Positions 582 through 21,264 of a DNA stretch of 21,264 nt are shown piece after piece; positions within the stretch are counted from its first letter, which is position 1; the number at the start of each line of letters is the position of its first letter. The stretch lies in the UHGV virus genome UHGV-0381259. One strand, 5' to 3'. Made by a program: the position numbers and the translations under genes. The notes beneath the pieces were generated by a model. The model did not search any database, was not told where the DNA came from, and saw only the letters and a list, made by a program, of their open reading frames with translations. The DNA is from a virus.

Positions 582-626
582 GCGTAGATCATGCAGGTGC
601 ATGAAAACCACTACATAAAGCGGGCA

Positions 627-2097: not shown

Positions 2098-2141
2098 TCA
2101 TCAACGAAAGTTTTCATCAGCTTTGCTTAAGGATTGACCTT

Positions 2142-6640: not shown

Positions 6641-6686
6641 GGCACAAACCTACAGCCTTGAATGAAGGCTTTCCCCGCCTGCGGTT

Positions 6687-6704
6687 TGTGTGGTAGTCGG
6701 TACA
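6687..6704. promoter_or_regulatory. P2 late-promoter activator dyad (TGT-N12-ACA, Ogr/Delta-type site) in the divergent P/O region
   Basis: TGTGTGGTAGTCGGTACA sits in the 141-bp gap between divergent P and O, about 80-95 bp upstream of the O start. Confidence 0.5.
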
Positions 6705-6781
6705 AATACCGCGCATTGTTTCACTGCCCCATCACCGCAACCATAAGGCTCCAGTAAGTTTTTTCTAACGGAGCACGGCTC

Positions 6782-7615
6782 ATGACAGTGAAAGCAAAGC
6801 GTTTTCGCATCGGGGTGGAAGGTGCCACCACCGACGGACGCGAAATCCAGCGTGAATGGCTGGAACAGATGGCAGCCAGCTACAACCCGGCGGTGTACAC
6901 CGCGCTGATTAACCTTGAGCACATCAAGTCTTATCTGCCGGACAGCACCTTTAACCGCTACGGCAAGGTGACGGCGCTGTTTGCTGAAGAAATCACGGAA
7001 GGTCCGCTGGCGGGCAAGATGGCACTGTATGCCGACGTTGAGCCAACGGAGTCCCTGGTGGAACTGGTGAAAAAAGGCCAGAAATTATTCACCTCTATGG
7101 AAGTCAGCCCGAAGTTTGCTGATACGGGCAAAGCCTACCTGGTCGGCCTGGCTGCTACAGATGATCCCGCCAGTCTGGGCACTGAAATGCTGACATTCAG
7201 CGCCAGTGCAGCCCATAACCCGCTGGCAAACCGCAAGCAGAATCCTGCCAATCTCTTTACCGCTGCAGAGGAAACGGTGATCGAACTGGAAGAAATCCAG
7301 GATGACAAACCGTCCCTGTTTTCCCGCGTCACGGCGCTGTTCACCAAAAAAGAGCAGTCAGACGATGCCCGGTTCTCTGATGTGCATAAGGCCGTGGAGC
7401 TGGTCGCCACTGAGCAGCAAAACCTGAGTGCGCGCACCGAAAAATCCCTGTCTGAACAGGAAGAACGCCTGTCTGAGCTGGAGACAGCCCTGCAGGCACA
7501 GCAGACCGCCTTTAACGAACTGGTGGACAAGCTGAGCCATGAAGACAGCCGCCAGGACTACCGCCAGCGTGCAACAGGCGGTAACGCCCCCGCTGACACT
7601 CTGACCAATTGCTGA
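6782..7615 (+). CDS. O: Capsid scaffolding protein O (gpO family)
   Basis: 277-aa product; N-terminus MTVKAKRFRIGVEGATTDGREI and gene order (P<->O-N-M-L) match P2 gpO. Confidence 0.9.
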   Translation: MTVKAKRFRIGVEGATTDGREIQREWLEQMAASYNPAVYTALINLEHIKSYLPDSTFNRYGKVTALFAEEITEGPLAGKMALYADVEPTESLVELVKKGQKLFTSMEVSPKFADTGKAYLVGLAATDDPASLGTEMLTFSASAAHNPLANRKQNPANLFTAAEETVIELEEIQDDKPSLFSRVTALFTKKEQSDDARFSDVHKAVELVATEQQNLSARTEKSLSEQEERLSELETALQAQQTAFNELVDKLSHEDSRQDYRQRATGGNAPADTLTNC

Positions 7616-7631
7616 TGGAGCACAAAACCTG

Positions 7632-8690
7632 ATGAAGAAGAATACCCGCTTTGCTTTTAACGCTTACCTGCAGCAGCTGGCGCGTCTGAACGGTGTGGCA
7701 GTTGAAGAACTGTCCAGCAAGTTCACTGTAGAGCCGTCCGTGCAGCAGACGCTGGAAGACCAGATCCAGCAGTCCGCCGCATTCCTGACGCTGATTAACG
7801 TCACGCCAGTGACTGAGCAGTCCGGTCAGCTGCTTGGATTGGGTGTTGGCAGCACCATTGCCGGAACCACTGATACCACCGCGAAAGAGCGTGAGCCTGT
7901 CGATCCGACGCTGATGGTCGATGTGGAATATAAATGCGAGCAGACCAACTTTGACACGGTGCTGACCTACGCGAAGCTGGATCTGTGGGCGAAGTTTCAG
8001 GATTTCCAGGTGCGCATCCGTGACGCCATCGTGAAACGTCAGGCACTGGACCGCATCATGATCGGCTTTAACGGCGTGAAGCGTGCGAAAACCTCCAACC
8101 GTAGCGAAAACCCGCTGCTGCAGGATGTGAACAAAGGCTGGCTGCAGAAAATCCGTGAGGATGCACCGGATCACGTCATGGGCAGCACCACCACGGGCGG
8201 TGAAACCACTCCGGGGGCGGTGAAAGTCGGGAAAGGTGGCGAATATGCCAACCTGGACGCCGTGGTGATGGATGCCGTTAATGAGCTTATCGACGTGGTC
8301 TACCAGGACGATGACGATCTGGTGGTGATTTGTGGTCGTGAACTGCTGTCTGACAAGTATTTCCCGCTGGTCAACAAAGAGCAGGAAAACAGTGAAAAAC
8401 TGGCTGCCGATATGATCATCAGCCAGAAACGCATGGGTGGCCTGCAGGCCGTGCGTGCGCCATTCTTCCCGCCGAATGCGCTGCTGATCACCCGTCTGGA
8501 TAACCTGTCCATCTACTGGCAGGAAGACACCCGCCGCCGTTCAGTTATCGACAACCCGAAACGTGACCGGATTGAAAACTTTGAATCCGTTAACGAAGCC
8601 TATGTGGTTGAGGACTACCGCTGCGCCGCACTGGTGGAAAACATCCAGATTGGCGACTTCAGCGCCGCCGCAGCAGAAACCGGAGCGTAA
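7632..8690 (+). CDS. N: Major capsid protein N (gpN family)
   Basis: 352-aa product aligns along its length with P2 gpN as recalled (TRFAFNAYL...KFTVEPSVQQTL...LDLWAKFQDFQVRIRDAIVKRQ...VVEDY). Confidence 0.93.
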   Translation: MKKNTRFAFNAYLQQLARLNGVAVEELSSKFTVEPSVQQTLEDQIQQSAAFLTLINVTPVTEQSGQLLGLGVGSTIAGTTDTTAKEREPVDPTLMVDVEYKCEQTNFDTVLTYAKLDLWAKFQDFQVRIRDAIVKRQALDRIMIGFNGVKRAKTSNRSENPLLQDVNKGWLQKIREDAPDHVMGSTTTGGETTPGAVKVGKGGEYANLDAVVMDAVNELIDVVYQDDDDLVVICGRELLSDKYFPLVNKEQENSEKLAADMIISQKRMGGLQAVRAPFFPPNALLITRLDNLSIYWQEDTRRRSVIDNPKRDRIENFESVNEAYVVEDYRCAALVENIQIGDFSAAAAETGA

Positions 8691-8693
8691 TCC

Positions 8694-9344
8694 ATGAGCC
8701 TGAGTCCCGCACGGCAGCATCGCCTGCGCGTTCAGGCTGAACAGGCCGCCCGTGAGGGTGGCAGTGTTCGCCACGCGTCGGGCTATGACCTGATGCTGCT
8801 GCAACTGGCAGAAGACCGCCGCCGTCTCAAGGGCGTTCAGTCCACGGTGAAAAAAGCGGAAATCAAGGTGGAGCTGCTGCCGAAATATGCCGCCTGGGCG
8901 GAGGGCGTCCTGGCTGCCGGAGGCGCTCAACAGGATGACGTGCTGATGTACGTGATGCTGTGGCGCATTGATGCCGGAGATTATGCCGGGGCGCTGGAGA
9001 TCGGGCGTCATGCCCTGCGTCATGGCTGGGTGATGCCGCTGGGTAACCGCAACGTGCAGACCGTGCTGGCAGAGGAAATGGCAGACGCCGCGCAGAGCGC
9101 AATACTTGCCGCCACCGGCTTTGATGCCGATCTGTTGTTGCAGACGCTGGAGCTGACAGACGGTCTGGATATGCCGGACCAGTCACGGGCGCGTCTGCAT
9201 AAAGCGATTGGCGCTGTCCTGAGTGAAAGCAATCCGGCTTCCGCCCTTAATCATCTCAACCATGCGTTACAGCTCGATCCCCGCTGTGGCGTGAAAAAAG
9301 ACAAACAGCAGCTGGAGCGCAGACTGCGCAATGACAGCCGCTGA
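8694..9344 (+). CDS. M: Terminase small (endonuclease) subunit M (gpM family)
   Basis: 216-aa product similar to P2 gpM (LRHA..Y..ML..LA.D.R.LK...ELLP...GAQDD.LM.VMLWR.D.GD.AGALEI); immediately follows N. Confidence 0.88.
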   Translation: MSLSPARQHRLRVQAEQAAREGGSVRHASGYDLMLLQLAEDRRRLKGVQSTVKKAEIKVELLPKYAAWAEGVLAAGGAQQDDVLMYVMLWRIDAGDYAGALEIGRHALRHGWVMPLGNRNVQTVLAEEMADAAQSAILAATGFDADLLLQTLELTDGLDMPDQSRARLHKAIGAVLSESNPASALNHLNHALQLDPRCGVKKDKQQLERRLRNDSR

Positions 9345-9439
9345 CAGAACGTGCCCCCGCGCACGGGCGGCACGGGGTGGCGAAAGGCACTGCCACATCA
9401 AAACCCCGTCCACCGCCCTCTATTTCAGGAGAACGCAGC

Positions 9440-9904
9440 ATGAAGTTTGTTGCGCCAGAACAGGCACCGGAACAGGCGGAAATCATCAGGAATACGCCGT
9501 TCTGGCCTGATGTGGACTTGTCGGAGTTTCGCAGTGTCATGCGCACTGACGGCACGGTGACGCAGCCGCGTTTAAAGCAGGTTGCGCTGTCGGCAATTTC
9601 GGAGGTTAACGCAGAGCTGTATGAGTTTCGCAGACGTCAGCAGATGCTGGGGTATGCGTCGCTGGCTGAGGTTCCGGCGGAACAGCTGGACGGCAAAAGT
9701 GAGCGCATCCAGCACTATTTCAACGCGGTTTACTGCTGGGCATGCGCCATGCTCAACGAACGATACCAGGACTATGACGCCACGGCATCCGGTGTGAAGC
9801 GAGGCGAGGAACTGGCGGAATCCAGCGGTGATTTGTGGCGTGACGCCCGCTGGGCCATCAGCCGGGTGCAGGATGCGCCGCACTGCACAGTGGAGCTTAT
9901 CTGA
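9440..9904 (+). CDS. L: Head completion/stabilisation protein L (gpL family)
   Basis: Start placed at ATG 9440 (MKFVAPEQ..., AGGAGA RBS) rather than the track start 9377; size and position after M fit gpL. Confidence 0.8.
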   Translation: MKFVAPEQAPEQAEIIRNTPFWPDVDLSEFRSVMRTDGTVTQPRLKQVALSAISEVNAELYEFRRRQQMLGYASLAEVPAEQLDGKSERIQHYFNAVYCWACAMLNERYQDYDATASGVKRGEELAESSGDLWRDARWAISRVQDAPHCTVELI

Positions 9905-10107
9905 TGAAAGTGCGTGCGCATCAGTATGACACGGTGGACGCGCTTTGCTGGCGTCATTACGGGCGCACGCAGGGTGTCACGGAGCAGGTACTGAAGGCAA
10001 ATCCGGGGCTTGCCGAATATGGCCCCTTTTTACCTCACGGGCTGCAGGTGGAGCTGCCGGACATTCCGACTACCACCACCGTGCAGACCGTCCAGCTATG
10101 GGACTGA
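9904..10107 (+). CDS. X: Tail protein X (gpX, LysM-like)
   Basis: 67-aa product MKVRAHQYDTVDALCWRHYGRTQGVTEQVLKANPGLAEYG matches the P2 gpX pattern and length; start overlaps the L stop. Confidence 0.85.
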   Translation: MKVRAHQYDTVDALCWRHYGRTQGVTEQVLKANPGLAEYGPFLPHGLQVELPDIPTTTTVQTVQLWD

Positions 10108-10110
10108 ATT

Positions 10111-10326
10111 ATGACGCTTGAGCGAATCAGCGCCTTTATCACGTACTGCATCGCCGTTGTGCTGGCCTGGCTGGGTGATTTGTCCATCAAGGATGCCTCA
10201 ACGCTGGGCGGCCTGATGATCGGTGTGCTGATGCTGGCTATCAACTGGTACTACAAACACAAAGCCTACCAGCTTCTGCGCGACGGGCAGATCTCGCGGG
10301 AGGACTATGAATCCATCAATCGTTAA
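10111..10326 (+). CDS. Holin (small, two predicted TM segments; pinholin-like)
   Basis: 71-aa protein with two hydrophobic stretches and a charged C-terminal tail; immediately upstream of, and overlapping, the endolysin gene. Confidence 0.65.
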   Translation: MTLERISAFITYCIAVVLAWLGDLSIKDASTLGGLMIGVLMLAINWYYKHKAYQLLRDGQISREDYESINR

Positions 10327-10819
10327 ACGCTGCCTTGTCGGGGCCGTGCTGGCTATTGCTGCCACGCTGCCGGGTTTTCAGCAGCTTCACACCTCCGTGG
10401 AAGGGCTGAAACTGATTGCCGATTACGAAGGTTGTCGTCTGCAGCCGTATCAGTGCAGCGCGGGTGTCTGGACCGACGGCATTGGTAATACGTCGGGCGT
10501 CATTCCCGGCAAAACCATTACGGAGCGACAGGCAGCAGAAGGGCTGATCTCCAACGTGCTGCGTGTGGAGCGGGCGCTGGAAAGGTGTGTGAAGCAACAG
10601 CCGCCGCAGAAGGTGTATGACGCTGCGGTGTCGTTTGCCTTCAACGTGGGTACGGGCAATGCCTGCAGTTCCACGCTGGTGAAATTGCTCAATCAGCGGC
10701 GCTGGGCGGATGCGTGCCGACAGTTGCCGCGCTGGGTGTATGTAAAAGGTGTGTTTAATCAGGGGCTGGATAACCGCCGTGCGCGGGAGATGGCCTGGTG
10801 CTTACAGGGAGCAAACTGA
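10307..10819 (+). CDS. Endolysin, T4-lysozyme-like muramidase with N-terminal SAR/signal-anchor segment
   Basis: N-terminal Gly/Ala-rich hydrophobic segment (CLVGAVLAIAATLPG) followed by YEGCRLQPYQCSAGVWTDGIGNT, which fits the E-8aa-(D/C)-5aa-T catalytic signature of GH24 phage lysozymes. Confidence 0.8.
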   Translation: MNPSIVKRCLVGAVLAIAATLPGFQQLHTSVEGLKLIADYEGCRLQPYQCSAGVWTDGIGNTSGVIPGKTITERQAAEGLISNVLRVERALERCVKQQPPQKVYDAAVSFAFNVGTGNACSSTLVKLLNQRRWADACRQLPRWVYVKGVFNQGLDNRRAREMAWCLQGAN

Positions 10820-10820
10820 A

Positions 10821-11198
10821 ATGAAAAAGAAAGTAATCAGCGGGCTGTTTCTGATGTTATGGATAGCGCTGTTAATCGCCGCAATGGTGTATCCGCAGGG
10901 GATTTTTCCGGTACTGGCAGCATCTGGTGTCTGGGTAGCCTGTGTGCTGACATGGGCAGTAATTCCGGTATCACTGGCTGCGTTAATTAAGAACGGCCCG
11001 CTCTGGCAGGAGTTGAGGGCATCTTTGCTGAAGACAATTACCCGAAAAGAAAACGTATTTATCAGCTGGATGATGCGATTGCTGATTGTCGTCAGTCTCG
11101 CCTGGACGGGGTGGGCTATTACCCTGGTCTTTTATCTACTGACCGTTATTGCCTTCTGGATCACCCGTAATCAGATGGCGCAACAGGTAGCAGCATGA
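10821..11198 (+). CDS. lysA: LysA-like membrane protein (lysis timing/accessory)
   Basis: About 125-aa product with several hydrophobic TM-like segments, in the P2 lysA position; start taken at ATG 10821 within the longer track ORF. Confidence 0.6.
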   Translation: MKKKVISGLFLMLWIALLIAAMVYPQGIFPVLAASGVWVACVLTWAVIPVSLAALIKNGPLWQELRASLLKTITRKENVFISWMMRLLIVVSLAWTGWAITLVFYLLTVIAFWITRNQMAQQVAA

Positions 11199-11623
11199 AC
11201 CGGTTGCTGCTGGTTGTGCTGGCGTTATTACTGGCGGCGCTGGGCTGGCAGACGTGGCGGCTGGCTGATGCCAGCCAGACCATCAGCACGCAGGCAGATG
11301 AGCTTCGGAGCAAAAGCCAGGCACTGGCAAAGAGCAACAGCCAGCTTATCAGCCTGTCCATTCTGACAGAAACCAACAACCGGGAGCAGGCGCGACTCTA
11401 TGCCGACGCAGAACAGACCAGCGCACTACTGAGACAACGACAACACCGGATTGAGGAACTGAAACGTGAGAACGAGAATTTACGCCGCTGGGCTGATACT
11501 CCTTTGCCTGCTGACATTATCCGGCTGCGGGAACGCCCCACACTCACCGGAGGTGCAGCTTACCGTCAGTGGTTGTCCGCGAGTGACGCAGTGTCGGCTG
11601 GGGCAGGCAGCGCCTCGCACTAA
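11195..11623 (+). CDS. lysB: LysB, Rz-like inner-membrane spanin
   Basis: 142-aa product with N-terminal TM segment (LLLVVLALLLAALGW) then a long charged coiled-coil-like region; ATGA overlap with lysA. Confidence 0.7.
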   Translation: MNRLLLVVLALLLAALGWQTWRLADASQTISTQADELRSKSQALAKSNSQLISLSILTETNNREQARLYADAEQTSALLRQRQHRIEELKRENENLRRWADTPLPADIIRLRERPTLTGGAAYRQWLSASDAVSAGAGSASH

Positions 11624-11756
11624 CGGTGACCTGAACGCGTTGCTGGATGAAACGGAGGCCGCCTGGGCGGTCTGTGCAGACAAAGTGGACATGATTATTG
11701 CGTGTCAGGAGCGAAACAGTGAACAAACCACAATCCCTGCGCCACGCCCTCAATAA
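11466..11756 (+). CDS. lysC: LysC, Rz1-like outer-membrane lipoprotein spanin, embedded in the +1 frame of lysB
   Basis: Lipobox LTLSGC after a hydrophobic signal segment; Cys/Pro-containing mature region; ORF starts inside lysB and runs past its stop into the R start region. Confidence 0.6.
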   Translation: MRTRIYAAGLILLCLLTLSGCGNAPHSPEVQLTVSGCPRVTQCRLGQAAPRTNGDLNALLDETEAAWAVCADKVDMIIACQERNSEQTTIPAPRPQ

Positions 11757-12150
11757 AGCGGTGCCTTATGTCCGCAATAACCCGGACAAACTGCATCTGT
11801 TTGTGGATAACGGTTCGCTGGTTGCCACGGGGGCCAGCTCCATGTCGTGGGAGTACCGTTACACACTGAACGCGGTGATTGAGGATTTCAGCGGCGACCA
11901 GAATCTGCTGATGGCCCCGGTTTTGCTGTGGCTGAGGGATAACCAGCCCGATGCCATCAATAACCCGGCGTTACGGGAAAAGCTATTCACCTTTGAGGTG
12001 GATATTCTGCGCAACGATGTCTGTGATATCAGCCTGAACCTGCAACTGACGGAACGTGTGCTGGTCAGCACTGACGGCAGTGTGTCGAGCGTTGAAGCTA
12101 TAGCGGAACCTGATGCACCTGAAGAAATGTGGACGGTGAAACGTGGCTGA
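11719..12150 (+). CDS. R: Tail completion protein R (gpR family)
   Basis: Product from GTG 11719 (VNKPQSLRHAL...FVDNGS...VLLWLRDNQPD...) parallels P2 gpR as recalled; start codon choice is uncertain. Confidence 0.8.
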   Translation: MNKPQSLRHALNKAVPYVRNNPDKLHLFVDNGSLVATGASSMSWEYRYTLNAVIEDFSGDQNLLMAPVLLWLRDNQPDAINNPALREKLFTFEVDILRNDVCDISLNLQLTERVLVSTDGSVSSVEAIAEPDAPEEMWTVKRG

Positions 12151-12589
12151 ACTGCAGAAGGTGGACGACTGGCTGAGTGCCTTGCTGGCGAATCTGGAAC
12201 CAGCCTCGAGAAGCCGCATGATGCGCCAGCTGGCGCAGGAACTTCGCCGGACACAGCAGCAGAATATCAGGATGCAGCGCAACCCTGACGGCAGCAGCTA
12301 TGAACCGCGACGGGTAACAGCACGCAGTAAAAAAGGCCGTATCAAACGTCAGATGTTTGCAAAGCTGCGCACCACAAAATACCTGAAAACAGCTGCCAGC
12401 ACCGACTCTGCCAGCGTGCAGTTTGAAGGCAAGGTGCAGCGCATTGCCCGCGTTCACCATTACGGCCTGCGAGATCGCGTCAGTCGTAAGGGACCGGAGG
12501 TGCGTTACGCAGAGCGTCGCCTTCTGGGTGTAAATGATGATGTTGAGGCAATGACCCGCGACATGATTCTGCAATGGCTGGCGGGGTGA
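12143..12589 (+). CDS. S: Tail completion protein S (gpS family)
   Basis: 148-aa ORF overlapping the R stop, in the P2 S position; GTG start. Confidence 0.8.
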   Translation: MAELQKVDDWLSALLANLEPASRSRMMRQLAQELRRTQQQNIRMQRNPDGSSYEPRRVTARSKKGRIKRQMFAKLRTTKYLKTAASTDSASVQFEGKVQRIARVHHYGLRDRVSRKGPEVRYAERRLLGVNDDVEAMTRDMILQWLAG

Positions 12590-12593
12590 TCTT

Positions 12594-12611
12594 TGTATCA
12601 GCACTGATACA
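12594..12611. promoter_or_regulatory. P2 late-promoter activator dyad (TGT-N12-ACA) upstream of gene V
   Basis: TGTATCAGCACTGATACA, a near-perfect palindrome, lies about 50-65 bp upstream of the V start codon in the S-V gap. Confidence 0.55.
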
Positions 12612-12657
12612 AGTTGCAGCACTGCCGCCTTTCTTCCCCTGATGGCAACCTTTCCCT

Positions 12658-13236
12658 ATGAACGCACAATTAACCGAAATCATGCGCCTTATCACCAACC
12701 TGATCCGCACAGGGGTAGTCACCGAAGTGGACAGGGAAAACTGGCTTTGCCGGGTGAAAACGGGCGAGCTTGAAACCAACTGGATCAGCTGGCTGACGCT
12801 GCGTGCCGGGAATGCCCGTACATGGTGGCGACCATCGGAAGGTGAGCAGGTGGTGTTGCTGAGTCTGGGCGGCAATCTGGAAACCGCCTTTGCGCTGCCC
12901 GCTGTCTATTCGAATCAGTTCGCACCACCGTCGACGTCGGCGGACGCCTGCGTGACAGAACATCCTGACGGTGGCTGGTTTGAATACGAACCCGCCACCG
13001 GGCGCTGGTATGTCAGGGGCATCAAATCAATGGTCATTGAGGCTGCTGACAACATCACCATGAAAACCAGTGAGTTTGTACTGGAGGCTGACCGCACGCG
13101 CATTAACAGCGAAGTGGTGATCAATGGTGGCGTTACCCAGGGCGGCGGAGCGATGAGTTCTAACGGGATCGTGGTTGATGCGCATCAGCATACTGGCGTC
13201 CTGAAAGGCGGCGATACAACCGGAGGCCCGGTATGA
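12658..13236 (+). CDS. V: Baseplate spike/assembly protein V (gpV family)
   Basis: 192-aa product; N-terminal region (ITNLIRTGVVTEVD...) and Gly-rich C-terminus are typical of gpV; gene order fits. Confidence 0.88.
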   Translation: MNAQLTEIMRLITNLIRTGVVTEVDRENWLCRVKTGELETNWISWLTLRAGNARTWWRPSEGEQVVLLSLGGNLETAFALPAVYSNQFAPPSTSADACVTEHPDGGWFEYEPATGRWYVRGIKSMVIEAADNITMKTSEFVLEADRTRINSEVVINGGVTQGGGAMSSNGIVVDAHQHTGVLKGGDTTGGPV

Positions 13237-13592
13237 CGCTTTATAGCGGGATGAACAATACCAGCGGCAAAGTCATTACTGATATTGATCATCTGCGCCA
13301 GTCGGTGCGGGACATTCTGCTGACACCGCAGGGTAGCCGTATTGCCCGCCGGGAATATGGTTCCCTGCTGTCGGCACTGATAGATCAGCCACAAAATCCG
13401 GCATTACGCCTGCAGGTCATGTCGGCAGTGTATGTGGCGCTGAGTCGCTGGGAGCCACGGTTGACGCTGGATTCCATCACCATCAACAGCAATTTTGACG
13501 GTTCAATGGTGGTGGAGCTGACCGGGCGGCGGAATAACGGTGTGCCTGTGTCCCTTTCCGTATCAACAGGAGCAGAGAATGGCAGTGATTGA
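13233..13592 (+). CDS. W: Baseplate wedge protein W (gp25-like)
   Basis: 119-aa product (DIDHLRQSVRDILLTPQGSRIARREYGS...) typical of the gpW/gp25 family; ATGA overlap with V. Confidence 0.88.
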   Translation: MTLYSGMNNTSGKVITDIDHLRQSVRDILLTPQGSRIARREYGSLLSALIDQPQNPALRLQVMSAVYVALSRWEPRLTLDSITINSNFDGSMVVELTGRRNNGVPVSLSVSTGAENGSD

Positions 13593-14487
13593 CCTTTCGC
13601 AGTTGCCTGCACCGCAGATTGTGGATGTGCCGGACTTTGAGACGCTGCTTGCCGAACGCAAGGCAGAATTTGTGGCGCTTCATCCGAAAGATGAGCAGGA
13701 AGCCGTGATCCGCACGCTGGAACTGGAATCTGAACCCGCCACTAAATTGTTGCAGGAGAACGCTTACCGTGAGTTGCTTCTGCGCAAGCGCATTAACGAA
13801 GCCGCGCAGGCGGTGATGGTGGCTTACGCGATGGGCGGCGATCTTGACCAGCTCGCTGCCAACTACAACGTGACACGCCTGACGGTGACGCCTGCTGATA
13901 ATGATGCTGTGCCGCCCGTTGCAGCTGTGATGGAAAGCGATGAAGCGTTGCGCCTGCGTGTGCCTGCAGCCTTTGAAGGGCTTTCTGTTGCGGGGCCAAC
14001 TGCAGCTTATGAATTTCATGCCCGAAGCGCCGACGGTCGGGTGGCGGATGCCAGTGCAACCAGCCCGGCACCTGCAGAGGTGGTGCTGACTGTCCTTAGC
14101 CGCGAAGGCGATGGAACTGCAGAAAAAGACCTGCTGGACGTGGTGGAAAAAGCTCTGAACAGTGAGAACGTCCGCCCGGTGGCTGACCGTCTTACGGTTC
14201 GCAGCGCAGAAATCATCCCGTATCGCGTGGAAGCCACCATTTTTCTCTATCCGGGACCGGAAGTAGAGCCGGTAATGGCAGCGGCAAAAGCCAGTCTGCA
14301 GAAGTACATTGCCAGCCAGACGAGGCTTGGTCGGGATATTCGCCGTAGCGCCATCTTTGCTGCTCTGCATGTTGAGGGTGTTCAACGTGTGGAACTGGCT
14401 TCTCCGCTGGCGGATGTGGTCCTGAACAAAACACAGGCGGCATCATGTACGCAGTGGAGCGTAACCAACGGAGGAACGGATGAATAG
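13579..14487 (+). CDS. J: Baseplate assembly protein J (gpJ family)
   Basis: Start taken at ATG 13579 (MAVIDLSQLPAPQIVDVPDFETLLAERKAEF...) rather than the track start 13540; about 302 aa as in P2 gpJ. Confidence 0.88.
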   Translation: MAVIDLSQLPAPQIVDVPDFETLLAERKAEFVALHPKDEQEAVIRTLELESEPATKLLQENAYRELLLRKRINEAAQAVMVAYAMGGDLDQLAANYNVTRLTVTPADNDAVPPVAAVMESDEALRLRVPAAFEGLSVAGPTAAYEFHARSADGRVADASATSPAPAEVVLTVLSREGDGTAEKDLLDVVEKALNSENVRPVADRLTVRSAEIIPYRVEATIFLYPGPEVEPVMAAAKASLQKYIASQTRLGRDIRRSAIFAALHVEGVQRVELASPLADVVLNKTQAASCTQWSVTNGGTDE

Positions 14488-15085
14488 TCTGCTGCCACCG
14501 GGTTCAACTTCACTGGAGCGCCGACTGGCGCAAACCTGTAGCGGGATTTCTGATTTGCAGGTGCCGCTGCGTGACTTGTGGAATCCGGCTACCTGTCCGG
14601 TCAGCTTCCTGCCTTATCTCGCCTGGGCGTTCTCTGTGGATCGCTGGGATGAGGGCTGGACAGAAAGCGTCAAACGCCAGGTAGTGAAGGATGCTTTTTA
14701 TATTCATCAGCATAAAGGAACCACCAGTGCCGTGCGGCGGGTGGTGGAACCGTTCGGATTCCTGATCCGCATTATTGAGTGGTGGCAGACCGGAGAAACA
14801 CCGGGCACGTTTCGCCTGGATATCGGCGTGCAGGACCAGGGCATCACTGAAGATACCTATCTGGAACTTGAGCGACTGATAAGCGATGCCAAACCATGTA
14901 GCCGCCACATGATCGGTATGTCCATCAATCTGCAGACCAGCGGCCCGCATTGGGTGGGAGCCGCCAGCTATCTTGGCGAAGAAATCACGATCTATCCGTA
15001 TATCAACGAAACGATTATTTCCGGTGGCACCGCGCATGAAGGCGGGGCGGTCCATGTTATTGACACAATGAGAGTGAATCCATGA
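14480..15085 (+). CDS. I: Baseplate/tail-fibre attachment protein I (gpI family)
   Basis: 201-aa ORF overlapping the J stop and H start, in the P2 I position. Confidence 0.85.
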   Translation: MNSLLPPGSTSLERRLAQTCSGISDLQVPLRDLWNPATCPVSFLPYLAWAFSVDRWDEGWTESVKRQVVKDAFYIHQHKGTTSAVRRVVEPFGFLIRIIEWWQTGETPGTFRLDIGVQDQGITEDTYLELERLISDAKPCSRHMIGMSINLQTSGPHWVGAASYLGEEITIYPYINETIISGGTAHEGGAVHVIDTMRVNP

Positions 15086-16473
15086 GCACAAAATTTTATA
15101 CCCTGCTGACGGATATTGGCGCGGCGAAACTTGCCAGCGCCGCCGCGCTCGGTGTGCCGCTAAAAATTACCCATATGGCGGTGGGCGATGGCGGTGGAGT
15201 ATTGCCAACGCCGGACGCAAAGCAGACGGCACTGGTAAATGAGAAACGCCGGGCTGCGCTGAATATGCTTTATATCGACCCGCAGAACAGCAGCCAGATT
15301 ATTGCCGAACAGGTGATCCCTGAAAACGAGGGCGGTTGGTGGATACGTGAAGTGGGCTTGTTTGATGAGTCCGGGGCATTGATTGCCGTGGGCAACTGCC
15401 CGGAAAGCTATAAGCCGCAACTGGCTGAAGGTAGCGGGCGCACTCAGACCGTGCGCATGGTGCTGATTACCAGCAGCACGGACAATATCACCCTGAAAAT
15501 CGACCCTGCTGTAGTGCTGGCAACCCGCAAGTATGTGGATGACAAGGCACTGGAGCTGAAGGTGTACGCGGATGATCAGATGGCAAAACATCTTGCCGCA
15601 CCGGACCCGCATTCACAGTACGCGCCAAAAGCCAGCCCGACATTTACCGGAACCCCCAAAGCGCCGACGCCAGCGGCGGGGAATAATACCACGCAACTTG
15701 CGACCACCGCGTTTGTTCAGGCGGCACTGACAGCCCTGATTAATGGTGCGCCAGCCACGCTGGACACGCTGAAAGAAATAGCCGCAGCCATTAACAATGA
15801 TCCGAATTTCAGTACCACCATTAACAATGCGCTGGCACTAAAAGCACCGTTGTCGAGTCCGGCACTCACCGGAACGCCAACAGCCCCCACGGCGGCGCAG
15901 TCGGTCAACAATACACAGATTGCCACTACGGCTTTTGTGAAATCGGCGATTGCAGGAATGGTGGGTTCTGCACCTGCTGCACTGGATACACTGAACGAAC
16001 TGGCGGCGGCACTGGGGAATGATCCGAACTTTGCCACGACAATGCTTAATGCGCTGGCAGGTAAACAACCGCTGGACAATACGCTTACCAATTTGAGTGG
16101 GAAGGATGTTGCCGGTCTTCTTGCATACCTTCAATTGGGAGAAGCGGCGAAACGGGATGTTGGCTCAGGGGCGGGACAAGTTCCTGATATGAGTAGTTTT
16201 CAGTCAGGTGGCGGGTGGTTTAAGTTGCCGAGTGGATATGTTATTCAGGCTTTCGAGGCGTCTTTTGATTCTAACGGGCTATATATCAATTTCCCTATAC
16301 CATTTCCGAGTAGCGTTATTGCTATTGTGCCAGGCGTTTTAATGTCAACGACTGCCTCTCCATCACAACAATTTCCATCAATACAATGTGACGTCAATGA
16401 TCTGACCCGTTTTTTTGCTAAATACAATATGGGTGGAATGAATGCTTCATATTTTATTGCTATAGGAAAATAA
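15082..16473 (+). CDS. H: Tail fibre protein H (constant N-terminal part plus a C-terminal variable tip encoded inside the invertible segment)
   Basis: N-terminus MSTKFYTLLTDIGAAKLASAAALGVPLKITHMAVGDGGG is the conserved P2 H / Mu S type; the C-terminal ~110 aa after LGEAAKR lie past the left crossover site and have a diverged homolog on the opposite strand at 17332-17682. Confidence 0.9.
   Translation: MSTKFYTLLTDIGAAKLASAAALGVPLKITHMAVGDGGGVLPTPDAKQTALVNEKRRAALNMLYIDPQNSSQIIAEQVIPENEGGWWIREVGLFDESGALIAVGNCPESYKPQLAEGSGRTQTVRMVLITSSTDNITLKIDPAVVLATRKYVDDKALELKVYADDQMAKHLAAPDPHSQYAPKASPTFTGTPKAPTPAAGNNTTQLATTAFVQAALTALINGAPATLDTLKEIAAAINNDPNFSTTINNALALKAPLSSPALTGTPTAPTAAQSVNNTQIATTAFVKSAIAGMVGSAPAALDTLNELAAALGNDPNFATTMLNALAGKQPLDNTLTNLSGKDVAGLLAYLQLGEAAKRDVGSGAGQVPDMSSFQSGGGWFKLPSGYVIQAFEASFDSNGLYINFPIPFPSSVIAIVPGVLMSTTASPSQQFPSIQCDVNDLTRFFAKYNMGGMNASYFIAIGK
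15634..16074 (+). repeat. Intragenic tandem duplication (two ~74-codon units) within tail fibre gene H
   Basis: Consecutive protein units ...TGTPKAPTPAAGNNTTQLATTAFVQAALTALINGAPATLDTLKEIAAAINNDPNFSTTINNALALKAPL and ...TGTPTAPTAAQSVNNTQIATTAFVKSAIAGMVGSAPAALDTLNELAAALGNDPNFATTMLNALAGKQPL. Confidence 0.7.
16118..16143. other. Candidate left crossover site (hix/gix-like) of the invertible segment
   Basis: TTCTTGCATACC-TT-CAATTGGGAGAA; outer half-site resembles the recalled hix/gix consensus TTCTTGAAAACC; inner half-site TTGGGAGAA is the inverted copy of the inner half of the right site. Confidence 0.45.
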
Positions 16474-16475
16474 CC

Positions 16476-16898
16476 ATGTATTTATTTTCGCCAAGCACAT
16501 TGGGTTTTTATCCCATCGAGATGAAAGAAGAATACCTTACCAATGGTTCATTACCATCTGATGTTATAGAGGTTTCTGATAGCGTCAGAAATGAATATAA
16601 CTTTGCGCCACCTGAAGGCAAACAGCTAAGTTCCAGCCAAAATATGCCAGTCTGGATTGATATTCCACCGGCGACACGTGAAGAGTTGATTGCTGCTGCC
16701 GAAAAAGAACGCCAGAAACTACTGGCCCATGCTGACGCTGTTATGCTGGACTGGCGAACTGAACTGATGCTGGGTGAAATCAGCGACGCCAACAAAGCTA
16801 AGCTGTCGGCGTGGCTGGCCTATAAAAATGAAGTTAAGTCGGCTGATGTGACAACTGACCCGGAGCGTGTTAACTGGCCTGTTCCCCCGGAGGCGTAG
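16476..16898 (+). CDS. G: Tail fibre assembly chaperone G (Tfa family), currently expressed orientation
   Basis: 140-aa product with the conserved Tfa C-terminal pattern (IAAAEKERQKLL...W.PVPPEA); directly follows H. Confidence 0.85.
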   Translation: MYLFSPSTLGFYPIEMKEEYLTNGSLPSDVIEVSDSVRNEYNFAPPEGKQLSSSQNMPVWIDIPPATREELIAAAEKERQKLLAHADAVMLDWRTELMLGEISDANKAKLSAWLAYKNEVKSADVTTDPERVNWPVPPEA

Positions 16899-17310
16899 GC
16901 CATTCAATATCTGGCGCACCGGAAGTATCGACCAGTTCCAGTGCGTCCAGATAATCCAGCCACAAATTATATTGCGCCAGTTCCTCACCTTTCAGACGAC
17001 CAATAGCCGCTTTACCAGGCCATTGTTTACTGTTCATATAATCGTTGGCCTGATTAATCAGTTGCTGCTTTTCAAGTTCGGCTGCAGCAATCTGTTCCTC
17101 ATGTGTTGGTGGTGGAATTTCAGTCCATGCAGGAAAACTATTTTCTCCAGCGATACGGATTTTTCCTTTCGGCGGTAATCCGGAAAACTCAATATACACT
17201 TGCTCATCAACTTCAACAGCATCATCTGGCCATGAGTCAGCTTGAGTGTAATCCTCTTTCATCTCCAGCGGATAGAAAGAGTTTGTAGTCGCGGAATATA
17301 TGTAATTCAT
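16870..17310 (-). CDS. Alternative tail fibre assembly chaperone G' (Tfa family), silent orientation
   Basis: 146-aa minus-strand product homologous to G (FYPLEMKEDY...IAAAELEKQQL...WPTPPGE); its 3' end overlaps the 3' end of G by about 29 bp. Confidence 0.8.
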   Translation of the reverse strand: MNYIYSATTNSFYPLEMKEDYTQADSWPDDAVEVDEQVYIEFSGLPPKGKIRIAGENSFPAWTEIPPPTHEEQIAAAELEKQQLINQANDYMNSKQWPGKAAIGRLKGEELAQYNLWLDYLDALELVDTSGAPDIEWPTPPGEQAS

Positions 17311-17331
17311 TTTTCACTCCATATAGCTAAA

Positions 17332-17682
17332 TTAACAGCCTAACGCTAAAAATGAAGCGCCGAGGCCAGGAGTACTGGCTCTGGATATAAATTTAACCGG
17401 GTCGGGACTAAAACCTGCACAGGCAATATAACCAACAGCCCCGCTATCTGGTGTGTAGTCTTGTGAGACCAAAACACGCAGACATCTGTTTGGAAATGCA
17501 ATCGGGAAATGGGTTACTACATCCTGTGCAATGCCTGGTGCGCCGATTGAGCCCCACTGAAGAATAAAACCTGATGGAAATTTTTGATATCCAGTACCTG
17601 AAACAGAAAGCGTGAAGCTACCCATATCAGGTATCTGATTCGCCCCTGTCCCTACATTCCTTTTAGCCGCTTCTCCCAAACC
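17332..17682 (-). CDS. Alternative tail-fibre C-terminal tip Hv' (no own start; fused to H constant part after inversion)
   Basis: Minus-strand frame encodes ...[22 protein letters not shown]...FPSGFILQ...FPIAFP..., parallel to the H tip (LGEAAKRDVGSGAGQVPDMSSF...LPSGYVIQ...FPIPFP); the track ORF extension to 17781 is outside the segment and not a real N-terminus. Confidence 0.7.
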
Positions 17683-17696
17683 AACGTTTAAGAAAA
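17671..17696. other. Candidate right crossover site (hix/gix-like) of the invertible segment
   Basis: TTCTCCCAAACC-AA-CGTTTAAGAAAA closely resembles the recalled Hin/Gin site consensus TTCTTGAAAACC-AA-GGTTTTTGATAA. Confidence 0.5.
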
Positions 17697-17750
17697 TGTA
17701 GTTTTCCCCCCTAGCTGGCATCATTTGGGCTTTTGCATGAGGGAAAACAA

Positions 17751-18329
17751 ATGCAGGTTGGCTATGTGCGCGTATCAACAAATGAACAAAATACCGCGCT
17801 ACAGCGTGACGCGCTGGAACGGTCGGGATGTGAGCTAATTTTCGAGGATAAAATCAGCGGTAAATCGACAAACAGGCCAAGGTTAAATCGCGCACTCAGG
17901 CAACTTAATGCCGGTGATACTCTCGTTGTCTGGAAGCTCGACAGGCTCGGGCGTAGCATGCGCCATCTTGTCTCTATGACTGAAGAGCTTCGCCAGCGAG
18001 GGGTTAATTTCAGAAGCCTGACCGACAGTATTGATACCTCAACCCCGATGGGGCGATTTTTCTTTCACATCATGGGCGCTCTTGCAGAAATGGAACGCGA
18101 GTTAATCGTCGAACGAACCCGCGCCGGGCTGGATGCAGCCCGGGCACAAGGCAGGATCGGAGGTCGTAGGCCGAAGCTGACGCCTGATGAATGGGCTCAG
18201 GCTGGCCGGTTGATTGCGGCCGGAGAATCCCGACAGCGTGTTGCACTGATTTTTGATGTGGGCATATCGACGCTGTATAAAAAATTTCCGGCGACAAATC
18301 CCGTTGTGTCAGCCACCGGCGAACCCTGA
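17751..18329 (+). CDS. Serine recombinase, DNA invertase of the Gin/Hin/Pin/Cin family
   Basis: N-terminus [22 protein letters not shown] with the catalytic Ser context (YVRVST); resolvase catalytic domain plus C-terminal HTH ([22 protein letters not shown]); about 192 aa; adjacent to the right crossover site. Confidence 0.9.
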
Positions 18330-18393
18330 CAAATAGCCGCATACAGGCGTAAACCAGACAATATCACTCACCTCAACTAACGGAGTTAAACGG

Positions 18394-19581
18394 ATGAGTG
18401 ATTATCATCACGGTGTCGAGGTCGTCGAAATTAACGACGGCACCCGCACAATCTCGACGGTATCAACGGCGGTCGTTGGCATGGTCTGCACAGCCAGTGA
18501 TGCTGACGCCGGGGCTTTCCCTCTCAATGAGCCGGTGCTGATTACCAACCCACAAAGCGCCATCGCAAAAGCCGGTACTAAAGGTACCCTGGCAAAATCC
18601 TTACAGCTCATCGCTAACCAGTCAAAACCGGTTGTCGTTGTTGTGCGTGTCGCGGAGGGTACCGGCGACGGCGAAGAGGCACAGGCGCAAACCATTTCTA
18701 ACATCATCGGCACCACGAATGAGAATGGCAAATATACCGGGATGAAAGCGCTGTTAACGGCGAAAGCGGTCACCGGCGTGAAGCCACGTATTCTCGGTGT
18801 GCCGGGGCTCGATACTCAGGAGGTGGCGACCGCGCTTGTCTCCGTGGCTCAGAAGCTGCGCGCTTTCGCCTATGTCAGCGCGTGGGGCTGTAAAACCATT
18901 GCTGACGTTATCGCCTACCGCGAAAACTTCAGCGCCCGTGAGCTCATGATTATCTGGCCTGACTTCCTCGGGTGGGATACCACGGCCAACGCGACCACAA
19001 CCAGTTATGCAACAGCGATCGCGTTGGGACTGCGCGCAAAAATCGACAATGATACAGGCTGGCATAAAACCCTGTCAAACGTCGGCATCAATGGCGTCAC
19101 CGGTATCAGTGCGTCGGTCTTCTGGGATTTGCAGGAATCTGGCACTGATGCCGACCTGCTGAATGAGGCCGGTGTTACGACGCTGATTCGTGCCGATGGT
19201 TTCCGCTTCTGGGGTAACCGTAATTGCTCCGATGACCCGCTGTTTCAGTTTGAGAACTACACCCGCACCGCACAGGTCATAGCCGACACAATAGCCGAGG
19301 GGCATATGTGGGCGAACGATAAGCCCATCACCGCGACGTTGATTCGCGACATTATCGACGGCATCAACGCGAAATTCCGCGAGCTGAAAACCGGCGGTTA
19401 CATCATCGATGCGACGTGCTGGTTTGACGAAGAGGCCAACAGTAAAGAAACCCTGAAAGCCGGGAAACTGTTTATCGATTATGACTATACGCCGGTGCCG
19501 CCACTCGAACACCTGACCTTACGCCAGCGCATTACTGATAAATATCTGGCGAATCTTATCTCGTCCGTCAACAGCAAATAA
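18394..19581 (+). CDS. FI: Contractile tail sheath protein FI (gpFI family)
   Basis: 395-aa product, N-terminus MSDYHHGVEVVEINDGTRTI, typical of P2 FI; followed by the tube gene. Confidence 0.93.
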   Translation: MSDYHHGVEVVEINDGTRTISTVSTAVVGMVCTASDADAGAFPLNEPVLITNPQSAIAKAGTKGTLAKSLQLIANQSKPVVVVVRVAEGTGDGEEAQAQTISNIIGTTNENGKYTGMKALLTAKAVTGVKPRILGVPGLDTQEVATALVSVAQKLRAFAYVSAWGCKTIADVIAYRENFSARELMIIWPDFLGWDTTANATTTSYATAIALGLRAKIDNDTGWHKTLSNVGINGVTGISASVFWDLQESGTDADLLNEAGVTTLIRADGFRFWGNRNCSDDPLFQFENYTRTAQVIADTIAEGHMWANDKPITATLIRDIIDGINAKFRELKTGGYIIDATCWFDEEANSKETLKAGKLFIDYDYTPVPPLEHLTLRQRITDKYLANLISSVNSK

Positions 19582-19593
19582 GGAGCCTGACAA

Positions 19594-20112
19594 ATGGCAT
19601 TACCGCGCAAGCTCAAACTCATGAACCTGTTTATCGATGGGGTGAGTTATCTCGGCGTCGTGCAGTCCGTCACGCTGCCGAAATTAACCCGCAAGCTCGA
19701 GAACTATCGCGGCGGCGGGATGAATGGTTCGGCACCGGTCGACCTCGGCCTCGATGACGATGCGCTGTCGGCTGAAATCTCTCTCGGCGGCTTCCCCGAT
19801 GACGCTATCTGGTCGTTATACGCTGCCACCGGCGCGGCCTCCGTACCGCTACGTTTTGCCGGGTCTTACCAGCGTGATGACACCGGCGAGACCGTGCCGG
19901 TTGAGGTTGTTCTCCGTGGCCGTCAGAAAGAAATCGACCTCGGTGAAGCCAAACAGGGCGAAGACACCGAGTCGAAAATCGCTCTCGCGTGTACCTATTT
20001 CAAGCTGACGATGAATGGCTCGGAACTGGTGGAAATCGACACCGTGAACCTCATCGAAAAAGTGAACGGCACCGACATGCTCGAGGCGCACCGACAAAAT
20101 ATCGGCCTGTAA
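19594..20112 (+). CDS. FII: Tail tube protein FII (gpFII family)
   Basis: 172-aa product (MALPRKLKLMNLFIDGVSYLG...), same length as P2 FII; position after FI. Confidence 0.9.
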   Translation: MALPRKLKLMNLFIDGVSYLGVVQSVTLPKLTRKLENYRGGGMNGSAPVDLGLDDDALSAEISLGGFPDDAIWSLYAATGAASVPLRFAGSYQRDDTGETVPVEVVLRGRQKEIDLGEAKQGEDTESKIALACTYFKLTMNGSELVEIDTVNLIEKVNGTDMLEAHRQNIGL

Positions 20113-20174
20113 TTTATGCCCCGGTCAGCATGGCTGGCCGGGCATCCTGAAACCAGAATTTAACGAGAAATATC

Positions 20175-20447
20175 ATGGATAAAACTAACGAAAATATCGT
20201 CACTCTGATTAAACCCATTAAGCGCGGTGAGCAGGTTATTACCGACGTCACCCTGTTAAAACCGTGTGCCGGAACCCTTCGCGGTGTCAGCCTGGCATCA
20301 GTCGCAAACTCTGACGTCGATGCGCTGATTAAAGTGCTGCCGCGCATGACCATGCCGTCGCTGACCGAGCAGGAAGCCGCCGCACTGGAGCTGCCCGACC
20401 TGCTGTCGTTTGCCGGTAAGGTGGTCGGTTTTTTGTCACCGAGTTAG
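20175..20447 (+). CDS. E: Tail assembly chaperone E (gpE)
   Basis: 90-aa ORF ending just after a TTTTTTG slippery site; position between FII and T. Confidence 0.85.
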   Translation: MDKTNENIVTLIKPIKRGEQVITDVTLLKPCAGTLRGVSLASVANSDVDALIKVLPRMTMPSLTEQEAAALELPDLLSFAGKVVGFLSPS

Positions 20448-20608
20448 GCGGCGTAATCTTCCCGCAAAAACTCACGGTCGATGACCTGATGGCTGACATA
20501 GCGGTAATTTTCCACTGGTCGCCATCAGACCTGTATCCCATGAGCCTGACCGAACTCGTCAACTGGCGCGAAAAAGCGCTACAGCGAAGCGGAAACACGA
20601 ATGAGTAA
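20175..20608 (+). CDS. Tail assembly chaperone E+E' (programmed -1 frameshift product)
   Basis: Slippery heptamer T-TTT-TTG at 20429-20435; the -1 frame is open from there (VTELGGVIFPQKLTVDDLMADIAVIFHWSPSDLYPMSLTELVNWREKALQRSGNTNE*) to TAA at 20606-20608, overlapping the T start, as in P2 E/E'. Confidence 0.7.
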
Positions 20609-21264
20609 TAACCTCAAACTCGAAGTGCTGCTGAAAGCTGTCGACCAGGCGACCCGACCCTTTAAAGCGATCCAGACAGCGAGCAAATCGCTGTCTGGCG
20701 ATATCCGCACGACTCAGCAATCCCTGCGTGATTTGAATGGTCAGGCATCGAAAATCGACGGTTTTCGCAAAACCAGCGCACAACTGGCGGTAACCGGACA
20801 GGCACTGGAAAAGGCAAAACAGGAAGCCGCCGAGCTGGCGGTGCAGTTTAAAAACACGGAACGGCCAACGGCGGCACAGGCCAGAGTGCTGGAATCAGCA
20901 AAGCGTTCGGCTGAAGGGTTACAGGCAAAATATAACAGCCTCACCCAATCGGTGAAGCGGCAACAGACCGAGCTCGGCAAAGCGGGGATTAATACGCGCA
21001 ATCTGTCGAATGATGAAAGCCGCCTGAAAAACTCTATCAATGAAACTACCGCACAACTTAACCGCCAGCGTGAAGCACTGGCGCGGGTCAGCGCGCAACA
21101 GGCAAAACTCAGCGCAGTACAAAAACGCTATCAGGCAGGAAAGGCACTGGCTGGAAATGCGGCATCGATGGGCGCTGCCGGGATAGGCATGGCAACGACC
21201 GGAGCGCTTGCCGGTGTTGCACTAATGAAGCCCGGTTATGATTTTGCTCAGAAAAACTCTGAGT
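20601..21264 (+). CDS. T: Tail tape measure protein T (gpT), 5' portion; continues past the window end
   Basis: N-terminus MSNNLKLEVLLKAVDQATRPFKAIQTASKSLSGDIRTTQQSLRDLNG closely parallels P2 gpT as recalled; open to the window end. Confidence 0.9.
   Translation, partial: MSNNLKLEVLLKAVDQATRPFKAIQTASKSLSGDIRTTQQSLRDLNGQASKIDGFRKTSAQLAVTGQALEKAKQEAAELAVQFKNTERPTAAQARVLESAKRSAEGLQAKYNSLTQSVKRQQTELGKAGINTRNLSNDESRLKNSINETTAQLNRQREALARVSAQQAKLSAVQKRYQAGKALAGNAASMGAAGIGMATTGALAGVALMKPGYDFAQKNSE

Follow-up and report, generated by a model that had tools for sequence, protein, structure and literature searches.

We are highly confident that the stretch of phage DNA analysed here (21,264 nt; the window) carries at 16118-17696 a tail-fibre tip switch that an invertase toggles between two states, as in the Mu G, P1 C and e14 P segments. 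The interpretation of this block as an invertible tip switch is supported, and the switch sits among the tail genes of a P2-like prophage of E. coli. We regard it as real and very probably functional. The features of Gin/Hin-type tail-fibre inversion that can be judged from sequence appear to be present: the Gin-like catalytic residues are intact, the 2-bp cores are matched, the exchange is in frame, and candidate Fis sites are placed as in Mu gin. The kind is already known. The same architecture is frequent in P2-like E. coli prophages and annotated Peduoviridae genomes, with many examples, and it represents an ordinary, documented class of phage host-range switch. Novelty is limited to the cassette combination, a three-way mosaic seen nowhere else.

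Anatomy of the probable inversion block

A first-pass annotation had described the tip of fibre gene H and chaperone gene G facing, on the opposite strand, a second chaperone (G') and a second fibre tip (Hv'), the whole bounded by inverted 26-bp sites with a common inner half, TTGGGAGAA, and followed about 55 bp past the right site by a Gin/Hin-family invertase gene. This observation was confirmed: Pfam searches found all the coding elements at the claimed places, both sites are present, and the invertase ATG lies 54 nt after the right one (Table 1). The constant N-terminus of the fibre is outside the segment, and inversion joins to it, in frame, alternative C-termini that each have their own chaperone; in silico, inverting the segment gives an in-frame H' of 466 aa. 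The two tips are 39% identical to each other and the two chaperones 37%. A PDB sequence search with H and G' returned nothing informative on receptor specificity. Inside the segment the GC content is 37-47%, versus about 55% in the flanks.

Hv' had also been described as having no start of its own. Within the segment this holds; however, an in-frame ATG on the minus strand lies just outside the right site, at 17724. No Shine-Dalgarno sequence was found before it. RefSeq annotation in EPEC begins the silent tip at this external ATG, giving a 130-aa gp53-like protein. The mechanical ORF around tip 2 runs 17332-17781 on the minus strand and has a Gp53-like_C match in Pfam.

Table 1. Features of the probable tail-fibre switch, in window coordinates
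Feature	Position	Strand	Evidence or sequence
Tail-fibre gene H	15082-16473	+	Pfam: Phage_tail_fib N-terminus and Gp53-like_C tip
Constant part of H, 350 codons, to crossover core	15082-16131	+	Phage_tail_fib, 5.3e-65
Left gix/hix-like site, core 16130-16131	16118-16143		TTCTTGCATACC-TT-CAATTGGGAGAA
Invertible segment, 1,551 bp between cores	16132-17682		In silico inversion and natural inversion pairs
Fibre tip 1 (Hv), fused to H and expressed in sequenced orientation	16132-16473	+	Gp53-like_C domain
Tail-fibre assembly chaperone G, cognate to tip 1	16476-16898	+	Caudo_TAP, 4e-29
Second chaperone G', cognate to tip 2	16870-17310	-	Caudo_TAP, 3.5e-37
Silent fibre tip 2 (Hv'), startless within segment	17332-17682	-	Gp53-like_C, 1e-14
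Right gix/hix-like site, core 17683-17684	17671-17696		Reverse-complemented TTTTCTTAAACG-TT-GGTTTGGGAGAA
Gin-family serine DNA invertase, 192 aa	17751-18329	+	Resolvase PF00239, 2.7e-50; HTH_7 PF02796, 9.1e-13
Putative Fis-dependent recombinational enhancer	17773-17835		Two 15-bp Fis-consensus matches, 17773-17787 and 17821-17835

Both sites are inverted, and each has TT as its core dinucleotide when read into the segment; their inner halves differ at the three bases adjacent to the core (CAA on the left versus GGT on the right). Candidate sites were scored against a hix/gix consensus (maximum 18), with shuffles as the control. The right site reached 17/18, the top score in the window, and the left site 13/18; scores of at least 12 occur about 8 times in the shuffles. 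Because consensus scoring alone leaves the left site within chance, we relied on comparative junctions: the left site is convincing by its position, its shared core and the comparative evidence, not by its score. The same scoring found no third site above chance level within the window, which led us to reject a shufflon-like arrangement of several sites, such as the other P2-like prophage of EPEC has. Among 56 related IMG/VR loci, most have a gix-like site that precedes the start of the invertase gene by 54-55 bp.

The invertase aligns with the Gin structure 3UJ3 over residues 1-183 (E 1.5e-85) and is identical to Mu Gin at 133 of 193 positions (69%). The catalytic residues S9, R7, D64, R65 and R68 are present, as are the Fis-contact residues Q150, R153 and L154, and also R47 and R50. 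In Hin, the residues specific to Fis/enhancer-dependent invertases are Q151, R154 and L155, with the basic residues K47, R48 and K51. The helix-B position that corresponds to Hin K47, described as 'always a lysine' across 15 aligned invertases (McLean et al., PMC3798978), is occupied here by Asn46, which may weaken enhancer contact; Asn46 is common to a clade of at least 93% identity that includes the active EPEC enzyme.

The two Fis-consensus matches lie 48 bp apart, centre to centre, at gene positions 30 and 78, and 96.5 bp separate the proximal match and the right core; in the hin system the enhancer site is about 100 bp from the recombination site (PMC3798978). Positions 30 and 78 match also in Mu gin and eight other invertase genes, at codon-constrained positions, and the degenerate consensus is loose enough that about 1 in 128 positions matches by chance. 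Because conserved codons also constrain these positions, we only infer an enhancer here, and inversion would presumably depend on it and on Fis. A scan from the right site to the invertase ATG found no sigma-70 consensus promoter, and no convincing terminator was found after G.

In the mechanism that we propose, dimers of the Gin-family invertase would bind both 26-bp sites and, with host Fis on the enhancer in the 5' end of the invertase gene, cut each of them in a staggered manner at its central TT. One pair of subunits would then rotate by 180 degrees and the DNA be religated, with the 1,551-bp segment inverted. In the sequenced orientation the late operon should give H(1-350)::tip1 with chaperone G, and in the inverted orientation H(1-350)::tip2 with chaperone G'. 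A lysogen population would accordingly produce virions that bear one or the other of two receptor-binding tips, which may recognise different receptors.

The setting is that of a P2-type phage. The block is flanked by genes for P2 gpJ, gpI and tail sheath (Pfam Baseplate_J, Tail_P2_I and sheath) in a tail module with the order V-W-J-I-H-G ... FI-FII-E-T, and the capsid, portal and terminase genes are of the P2 family. The names that RefSeq gives on L009, a 99.86%-identical prophage, back these assignments. TGT-N12-ACA dyads, as in P2-type late promoters, lie upstream of O/P and V. A strict search for this dyad upstream of the sheath gene gave no match; the pF region is nonetheless homologous to that of P2 by alignment. 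The earlier statement that the G-FI interval of P2 holds Z/fun agrees with the P2 record.

Both orientations in related genomes

Public genomes hold both orientations, with junctions at the core. E. coli strains E7476 (L005) and L3_E36_ETEC (L004) have the same tip1+G cassette and differ by a clean 1.5-kb inversion (segment 99.07% identical, flanks 93-95%), in which the half-sites change places precisely at TT; among them is the unusual inner half CAATTGGGAGAA that the window's left site has. The window's tip 1 cassette is 95% identical in the two, at the silent position in L004 and the expressed position in L005. Recombination of this left-site type is seen only with invertases about 85% identical to that of the window (their DNA-binding domains agree with its own at 39 of 46 residues). 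In 24 complete genomes of E. coli the H::tip2 junction occurs as predicted, contiguously and with about 96% identity. The window's own combination of cassettes is absent from 5,426 complete E. coli genomes, and an exact-pattern scan of a species-representative genome collection for the left and right junctions, in either state, gave no match.

The P2-like locus of EPEC E2348/69 inverts in clonal cultures (Goldberg et al. 2014, PMC4272514): in cultures grown from single colonies, the interval 2977580-2979467 of NC_011601.1 was measured as 93 +/- 4% forward (PMC4272514 Table S1). The right end that the paper gives for this inversion maps to window position 17684, in the predicted core, and the IMG/VR contig L014 is the same EPEC element in the reverse orientation, with its breakpoint also at 17684. 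From 16887 to 20242, which covers G', tip 2, the right site and the invertase, the window has zero nucleotide differences from NC_011601.1; with the sheath operon, the likeness is 99.84% over 4,391 bp, and the invertase proteins are identical. The left halves are not alike: in EPEC the tip is another one, the chaperone gene is 603 nt long, the left site reads TTCTTCTTTCCC-TT-GGTTTGGGAGAA, and H is truncated, in a defective prophage, whereas the window has a full-length H in an apparently complete one.

On the comparative pairs and the EPEC experiment, we count inversion as occurring in relatives of this mosaic and as very probable in the mosaic itself. The reading of the block as a G-segment-like switch is supported by both orientations at the predicted core in nature and by a right half identical to that of a locus that flips in EPEC E2348/69.

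Mosaic origin and alternative readings

Another reading has the switch serve the host instead of, or besides, the phage, with a fibre-tip product of the inversion at work in the lysogen, where it might for instance keep other phages from adsorbing; in a further variant, the invertase might work in trans on the segments of further prophages in the same cell. In e14, PinQ-driven inversion of the P segment yields StfE2, and T2 adsorption is inhibited via this recombinase-activated inversion (PMC12529663). Moreover, the identical right half survives, and still flips, in the truncated, defective and virionless EPEC P2-like remnant, and the ATG outside the right site is in frame. That ATG nevertheless has no Shine-Dalgarno sequence, and the element, whose head, lysis and tail genes are intact, seems to be a complete P2-type prophage, for which the classical host-range role suffices. 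We consider a host-serving function unlikely.

The window is a three-way mosaic, in which 1-16152 resembles MFDS1016424, 16145-16900 is of the L004/L005 type and 16874-21264 resembles EPEC. One breakpoint coincides with the left crossover site (16144-16152), where the match of the constant part of H to E. coli prophages (98-99.9% identical) ends, and the other with the overlap between the 3' ends of the chaperone genes (16868-16887). The tip1+G cassette with the same bounding half-site is found also in Mu-like and DUF2612-type prophages. We suggest, tentatively, that crossover sites might double as cassette junctions between genomes. Invertases of co-resident prophages would then let unrelated phages swap tip and chaperone cassettes, through intermolecular site-specific recombination and not through homologous recombination in the conserved linker. 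Sandmeier reportedly raised the idea of such inter-genome exchange for Mu, P1 and p15B.

Assembly from separate sources would also suit a frozen relic, in which the left site, gained with a foreign tip1+G cassette, is no substrate for the EPEC-type invertase and the segment is locked in the tip 1 orientation. The three divergent core-adjacent bases and the low score of the left site point the same way, as does the fact that this exact invertase has been observed only with GGTTTG-type sites on both sides. However, the cores match (TT/TT), the CAATTGGGAGAA half-site recombines with a GGTTT-type partner in the L004/L005 pair, and this CAATTG-type inner half adjoins the invertase in 3 of the 56 IMG/VR loci (L033, L036 and L051). 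Gin, Cin, Pin and Hin, furthermore, replace one another on each other's sites. A locked segment is therefore very unlikely in our judgement, and the left site of this mosaic is probably used by its invertase.

The sites form the outer ends of a 65-nt inverted repeat (16135-16199 and 17615-17679; 78% identical, longest identical run about 14 nt) that flanks the segment. That RecA-dependent homologous recombination across this repeat produced the orientation polymorphism among genomes is scarcely credible: such a repeat is a poor RecA substrate, the L004 and L005 arms lack extended similarity past the site (GGTTTAAGGGCAAGCGG... versus CAATTGGGAGAAGCGG...) yet exchange exactly at the TT core, the spacing from site to intact invertase gene is fixed at 54-55 bp over many loci, and the EPEC locus flips far more often than homologous recombination would lead one to expect.

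As an invertase-driven tip switch, the locus has little importance beyond annotation. There, it means that the silent tip is not a separate gene, that H has two alternative products, and that assemblies may differ in orientation without misassembly. A lysogen should release mixed virions with two receptor specificities, a prediction relevant to host-range experiments with such prophages or with P2-type tailocins. For evolution, it is one more clean case of tip and chaperone cassettes traded at a crossover site.

Relation to known invertase systems

The architecture had been likened to that of the Mu G and P1 C segments, and invertase, inverted sites and paired tips and chaperones are indeed all present. 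With Mu, the locus shares a constant fibre N-terminus outside the segment, two convergent cassettes of tip and chaperone, 26-bp inverted sites with the invertase gene (69% identical) directly to the right, and Fis-consensus matches at the same two gene positions. The site lies in the same reading frame, encoding L-G-L-(Q/G)-E. In contrast, the segment measures 1.55 kb rather than about 3 kb, only about 115 fibre residues are exchanged, the core is TT rather than TC, residue 46 of the invertase is Asn instead of the Lys of Gin, and the phage is P2-type, not Mu-type. The e14 P/Pin system of E. coli K-12 and P1 C/Cin belong to the same family of invertase-driven fibre-tip switches, although in lambdoid and P1 phage backgrounds; the reported e14 repeat, AAACCTTGGTTTGGGAGAAGG, agrees with the right site of the window in its core and inner half, TT-GGTTTGGGAGAA. 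The layout is also annotated in Peduoviridae such as Escherichia phage 500465-1 and Klebsiella phage KP12, together with many E. coli prophages. These carry other tip and chaperone cassettes and an invertase allele of 188 aa that is 79% identical, but the order I-H-G-G'-tip'-'DNA invertase'-sheath is the same, and the constant part of H is 90-98% identical.

Setting and layout of the fibre-tip segment

The window covers the structural half of a prophage of the P2-like (Peduoviridae) type. Over the first 16 kb its closest relative is the E. coli MFDS1016424 prophage, in which the RefSeq genes follow the P2 order from the portal to the tail tape-measure gene. Both carry the same three-gene type IX retron-like defence cassette, which in the window lies in the P2 cargo hotspot adjoining the portal gene. 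An extra 236-aa reading frame with a Terminase_6N domain, named "terminase large subunit domain-containing protein" in RefSeq for the near-identical prophage, is found between Q and P, genes that are adjacent in P2 itself.

Downstream, the expressed tip of fibre H (tip1) and its chaperone G are followed by a second chaperone and a silent tip (G' and tip2) on the minus strand; the tips are 39% identical and the chaperones 37%. An in-frame minus-strand ATG (17722-17724), with no evident Shine-Dalgarno sequence, lies just beyond the right crossover site, so that pipelines can annotate the silent tip as a separate 130-aa "gp53-like domain-containing protein". P2 carries fun(Z) in the G-FI interval, a statement of the first-pass annotation with which the P2 record agrees.

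Features of the window and closest relatives of its parts
Feature	Positions	Strand	Basis or identity
Retron-like cassette	716-3119	+	PADLOC HEPN_IX 1.4e-52, HTH_IX 1.5e-61, RT_IX 4.2e-129; Pfam RVT_1
Portal gene Q	3139-4170
Terminase_6N reading frame	4167-4877	-	3.2e-17
Terminase gene P	4874-6640
gpJ	13540-14487	+	Pfam
gpI	14480-15085	+	Pfam
H: tail-collar fibre N-terminus and Gp53-like_C tip	15082-16473	+	Pfam
Left crossover site	16118-16143
G, Caudo_TAP chaperone	16476-16898	+	Pfam
G', second Caudo_TAP chaperone	16870-17310	-	Pfam
Mechanically called ORF with second Gp53-like_C tip	17332-17781	-	Pfam
Right crossover site	17671-17696
Invertase (Resolvase and HTH_7)	17751-18329	+	Pfam
Tail sheath	18394-19581	+	Pfam
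Part closest to E. coli MFDS1016424 prophage	1-16152		99.86%
Part closest to L004/L005-type tip1+G cassette	~16145-16880		~95%
Part closest to EPEC E2348/69 P2-like remnant	16874-21264		99.84%

Crossover sites, invertase and putative enhancer

The two 26-bp sites that the first-pass annotation placed at the ends of this block are real. The left site reads TTCTTGCATACC-TT-CAATTGGGAGAA and the right site, reverse-complemented, TTTTCTTAAACG-TT-GGTTTGGGAGAA. A 65-nt inverted repeat of 78% identity has one site at the outer end of each arm and runs into the first ~20 codons of each tip. Read into the segment, both sites have the core dinucleotide TT; the cores thus match, which religation demands after a rotation of 180 degrees. 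When 16132-17682 is reverse-complemented in silico, the reading frame is preserved and the 463-aa H (…LAYLQLGEAAKRD…) becomes a 466-aa H'. Against the hix/gix consensus, the right site scores 17/18, higher than any other in the window, and the left site 13/18. Because shuffled sequence reaches at least 12 about eight times, the left site is supported by context and comparison rather than by score. This scoring found no third crossover site in the window; the switch is thus a simple two-state one, unlike the three-site arrangement of another EPEC prophage.

The invertase is identical to Mu Gin at 133 of 193 positions; it aligns over residues 1-183 with the Gin crystal structures (E 1.5e-85) and retains Ser9, Arg7, Asp64, Arg65 and Arg68. 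Its Q150/R153/L154 are the equivalents of Hin Q151/R154/L155 in the DNA-binding domain, described as specific to Fis-dependent invertases (McLean et al., PMC3798978). The same paper reports the helix-B position of Hin K47 (Gin K46) as "always a lysine" across 15 invertases; the equivalent codon 46 of the window gene (17886-17888) encodes Asn. Asn46 is restricted to a clade at least 93% identical to the window enzyme (14 of 81 IMG/VR hits), all other invertases examined having Lys. The last ~9 codons of this 192-aa protein overlap a stretch (18303-18338) homologous to the activator-binding region of P2 pF, and 64 bp separate its stop from the sheath ATG, versus 143 bp in the 188-aa invertase lineage; the gene thus runs up to, or into, the FI operon's late promoter.

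Fis sites in the Hin and Gin enhancers are spaced 48 bp apart. The 5' part of the invertase gene, where the first-pass annotation had proposed to look for such an enhancer, matches the degenerate Fis consensus twice, at gene positions 30 (17773-17787) and 78 (17821-17835). The matches are likewise spaced by 48 bp and lie 96.5 and 144.5 bp away from the right core. Mu gin and eight other invertase genes have matches at identical gene positions. In the hin system the proximal Fis site lies ~100 bp from hixL (PMC3798978). The matches are consistent with an enhancer but do not prove one, given the looseness of the motif and the codon constraint on both positions.

Inversion of the cassettes in related prophages

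Parts of the switch flip, on three independent lines of evidence: tip1+G is found both ways round, tip2+G' is found both ways round, and the right half inverts in EPEC. Together with the in-frame fusion, these support the G-segment-like, invertase-driven fibre-tip switch originally proposed for this block.

Two P2-like prophages have the tip1+G cassette at 95% identity: in E. coli E7476 (L005) it is joined to H, in L3_E36_ETEC (L004) it adjoins the invertase. The two align as a 95% flank, an inverted 1,499-bp block at 99.07% and a 93% flank. The half-sites are Lo-TT-CAATTGGGAGAA and Ro-TT-GGTTTAAGGGCA in L005, and Lo-TT-GGTTTAAGGGCA and Ro-TT-CAATTGGGAGAA in L004, so that all four are exchanged precisely at TT. 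Homologous recombination is not a credible source of this inversion, because the arms share almost nothing past the site.

The tip2+G' cassette was found in ~600 of 5,426 complete E. coli genomes, both positions being represented. A synthetic query fusing the window H end, at the core, with reverse-complemented tip2 was recovered contiguously in 24 genomes (100% coverage, ~96% identity), where the fusion is annotated as a single intact tail protein.

The right part of the window is without a single difference from the EPEC E2348/69 remnant across 16887-20242, and the invertase proteins are identical. At that locus (NC_011601.1, 2977580-2979467) both orientations were present in single-colony cultures, 93 ± 4% forward, a ratio skewed to 93:7 with the identical enzyme, e14 being ~50:50 (Goldberg et al. 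2014, PMC4272514). On the window, the published inversion end, 2979467, falls on position 17684, the second of the two predicted core bases; L014, an IMG/VR contig with the EPEC element in reverse orientation, has its breakpoint there too. The whole switch of the window almost certainly flips. The one remaining step is inferred, namely recombination at the imported left site by the EPEC-type invertase. Left-type half-sites are used by invertases ~85% identical to the window's (DNA-binding domain 39/46 identical). Invertases of the Gin/Hin family are known to cross-complement.

Mosaic origin and known relatives

What is particular to the window is the cassette combination only, a three-way mosaic as read from the closest relatives of its parts. 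One breakpoint coincides with the left crossover site, the other with the 3' ends of G and G', which overlap; GC content is ~55% outside the invertible segment and 37-47% within it. The exact combination was absent from all 5,426 complete E. coli genomes in the collection. The tip1+G cassette also sits, 91-95% identical, on fibres of Mu-like (GP46/gp47) and DUF2612-type prophages (L006, E. coli ECONIH5; L007, E. coli S1), evidence of cassette sharing across unrelated tail modules.

In another phage type, a non-P2 prophage with a DUF2612/gp47 baseplate, two assemblies of E. coli strain 44 (L095, NZ_CM132959.1; L096, NZ_CM132951.1; ~2.933-2.935 Mb) carry a tip-plus-chaperone segment in opposite orientations beside the same recombinase, a case of within-strain flipping.

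The same gene order with a "DNA invertase" is found in Escherichia phage 500465-1, Klebsiella phage KP12 and many E. coli prophages, and 2,602 of the 5,426 E. coli genomes match some portion of a 15000-18400 query. In most of 56 IMG/VR relatives of the invertase, a gix-like site precedes the start codon by 54-55 bp, the invertase-side sites having outer half TTTTCNNAAACG and core TT; a CAATTG-type inner half lies beside the invertase in three. Gene families enriched beside programmed inversions include "phage tail protein I" and "tail fiber assembly protein" (Milman et al. 2023). The switch in the window belongs to a kind known for a long time, and an example characterised by experiment is identical to it in the right half.
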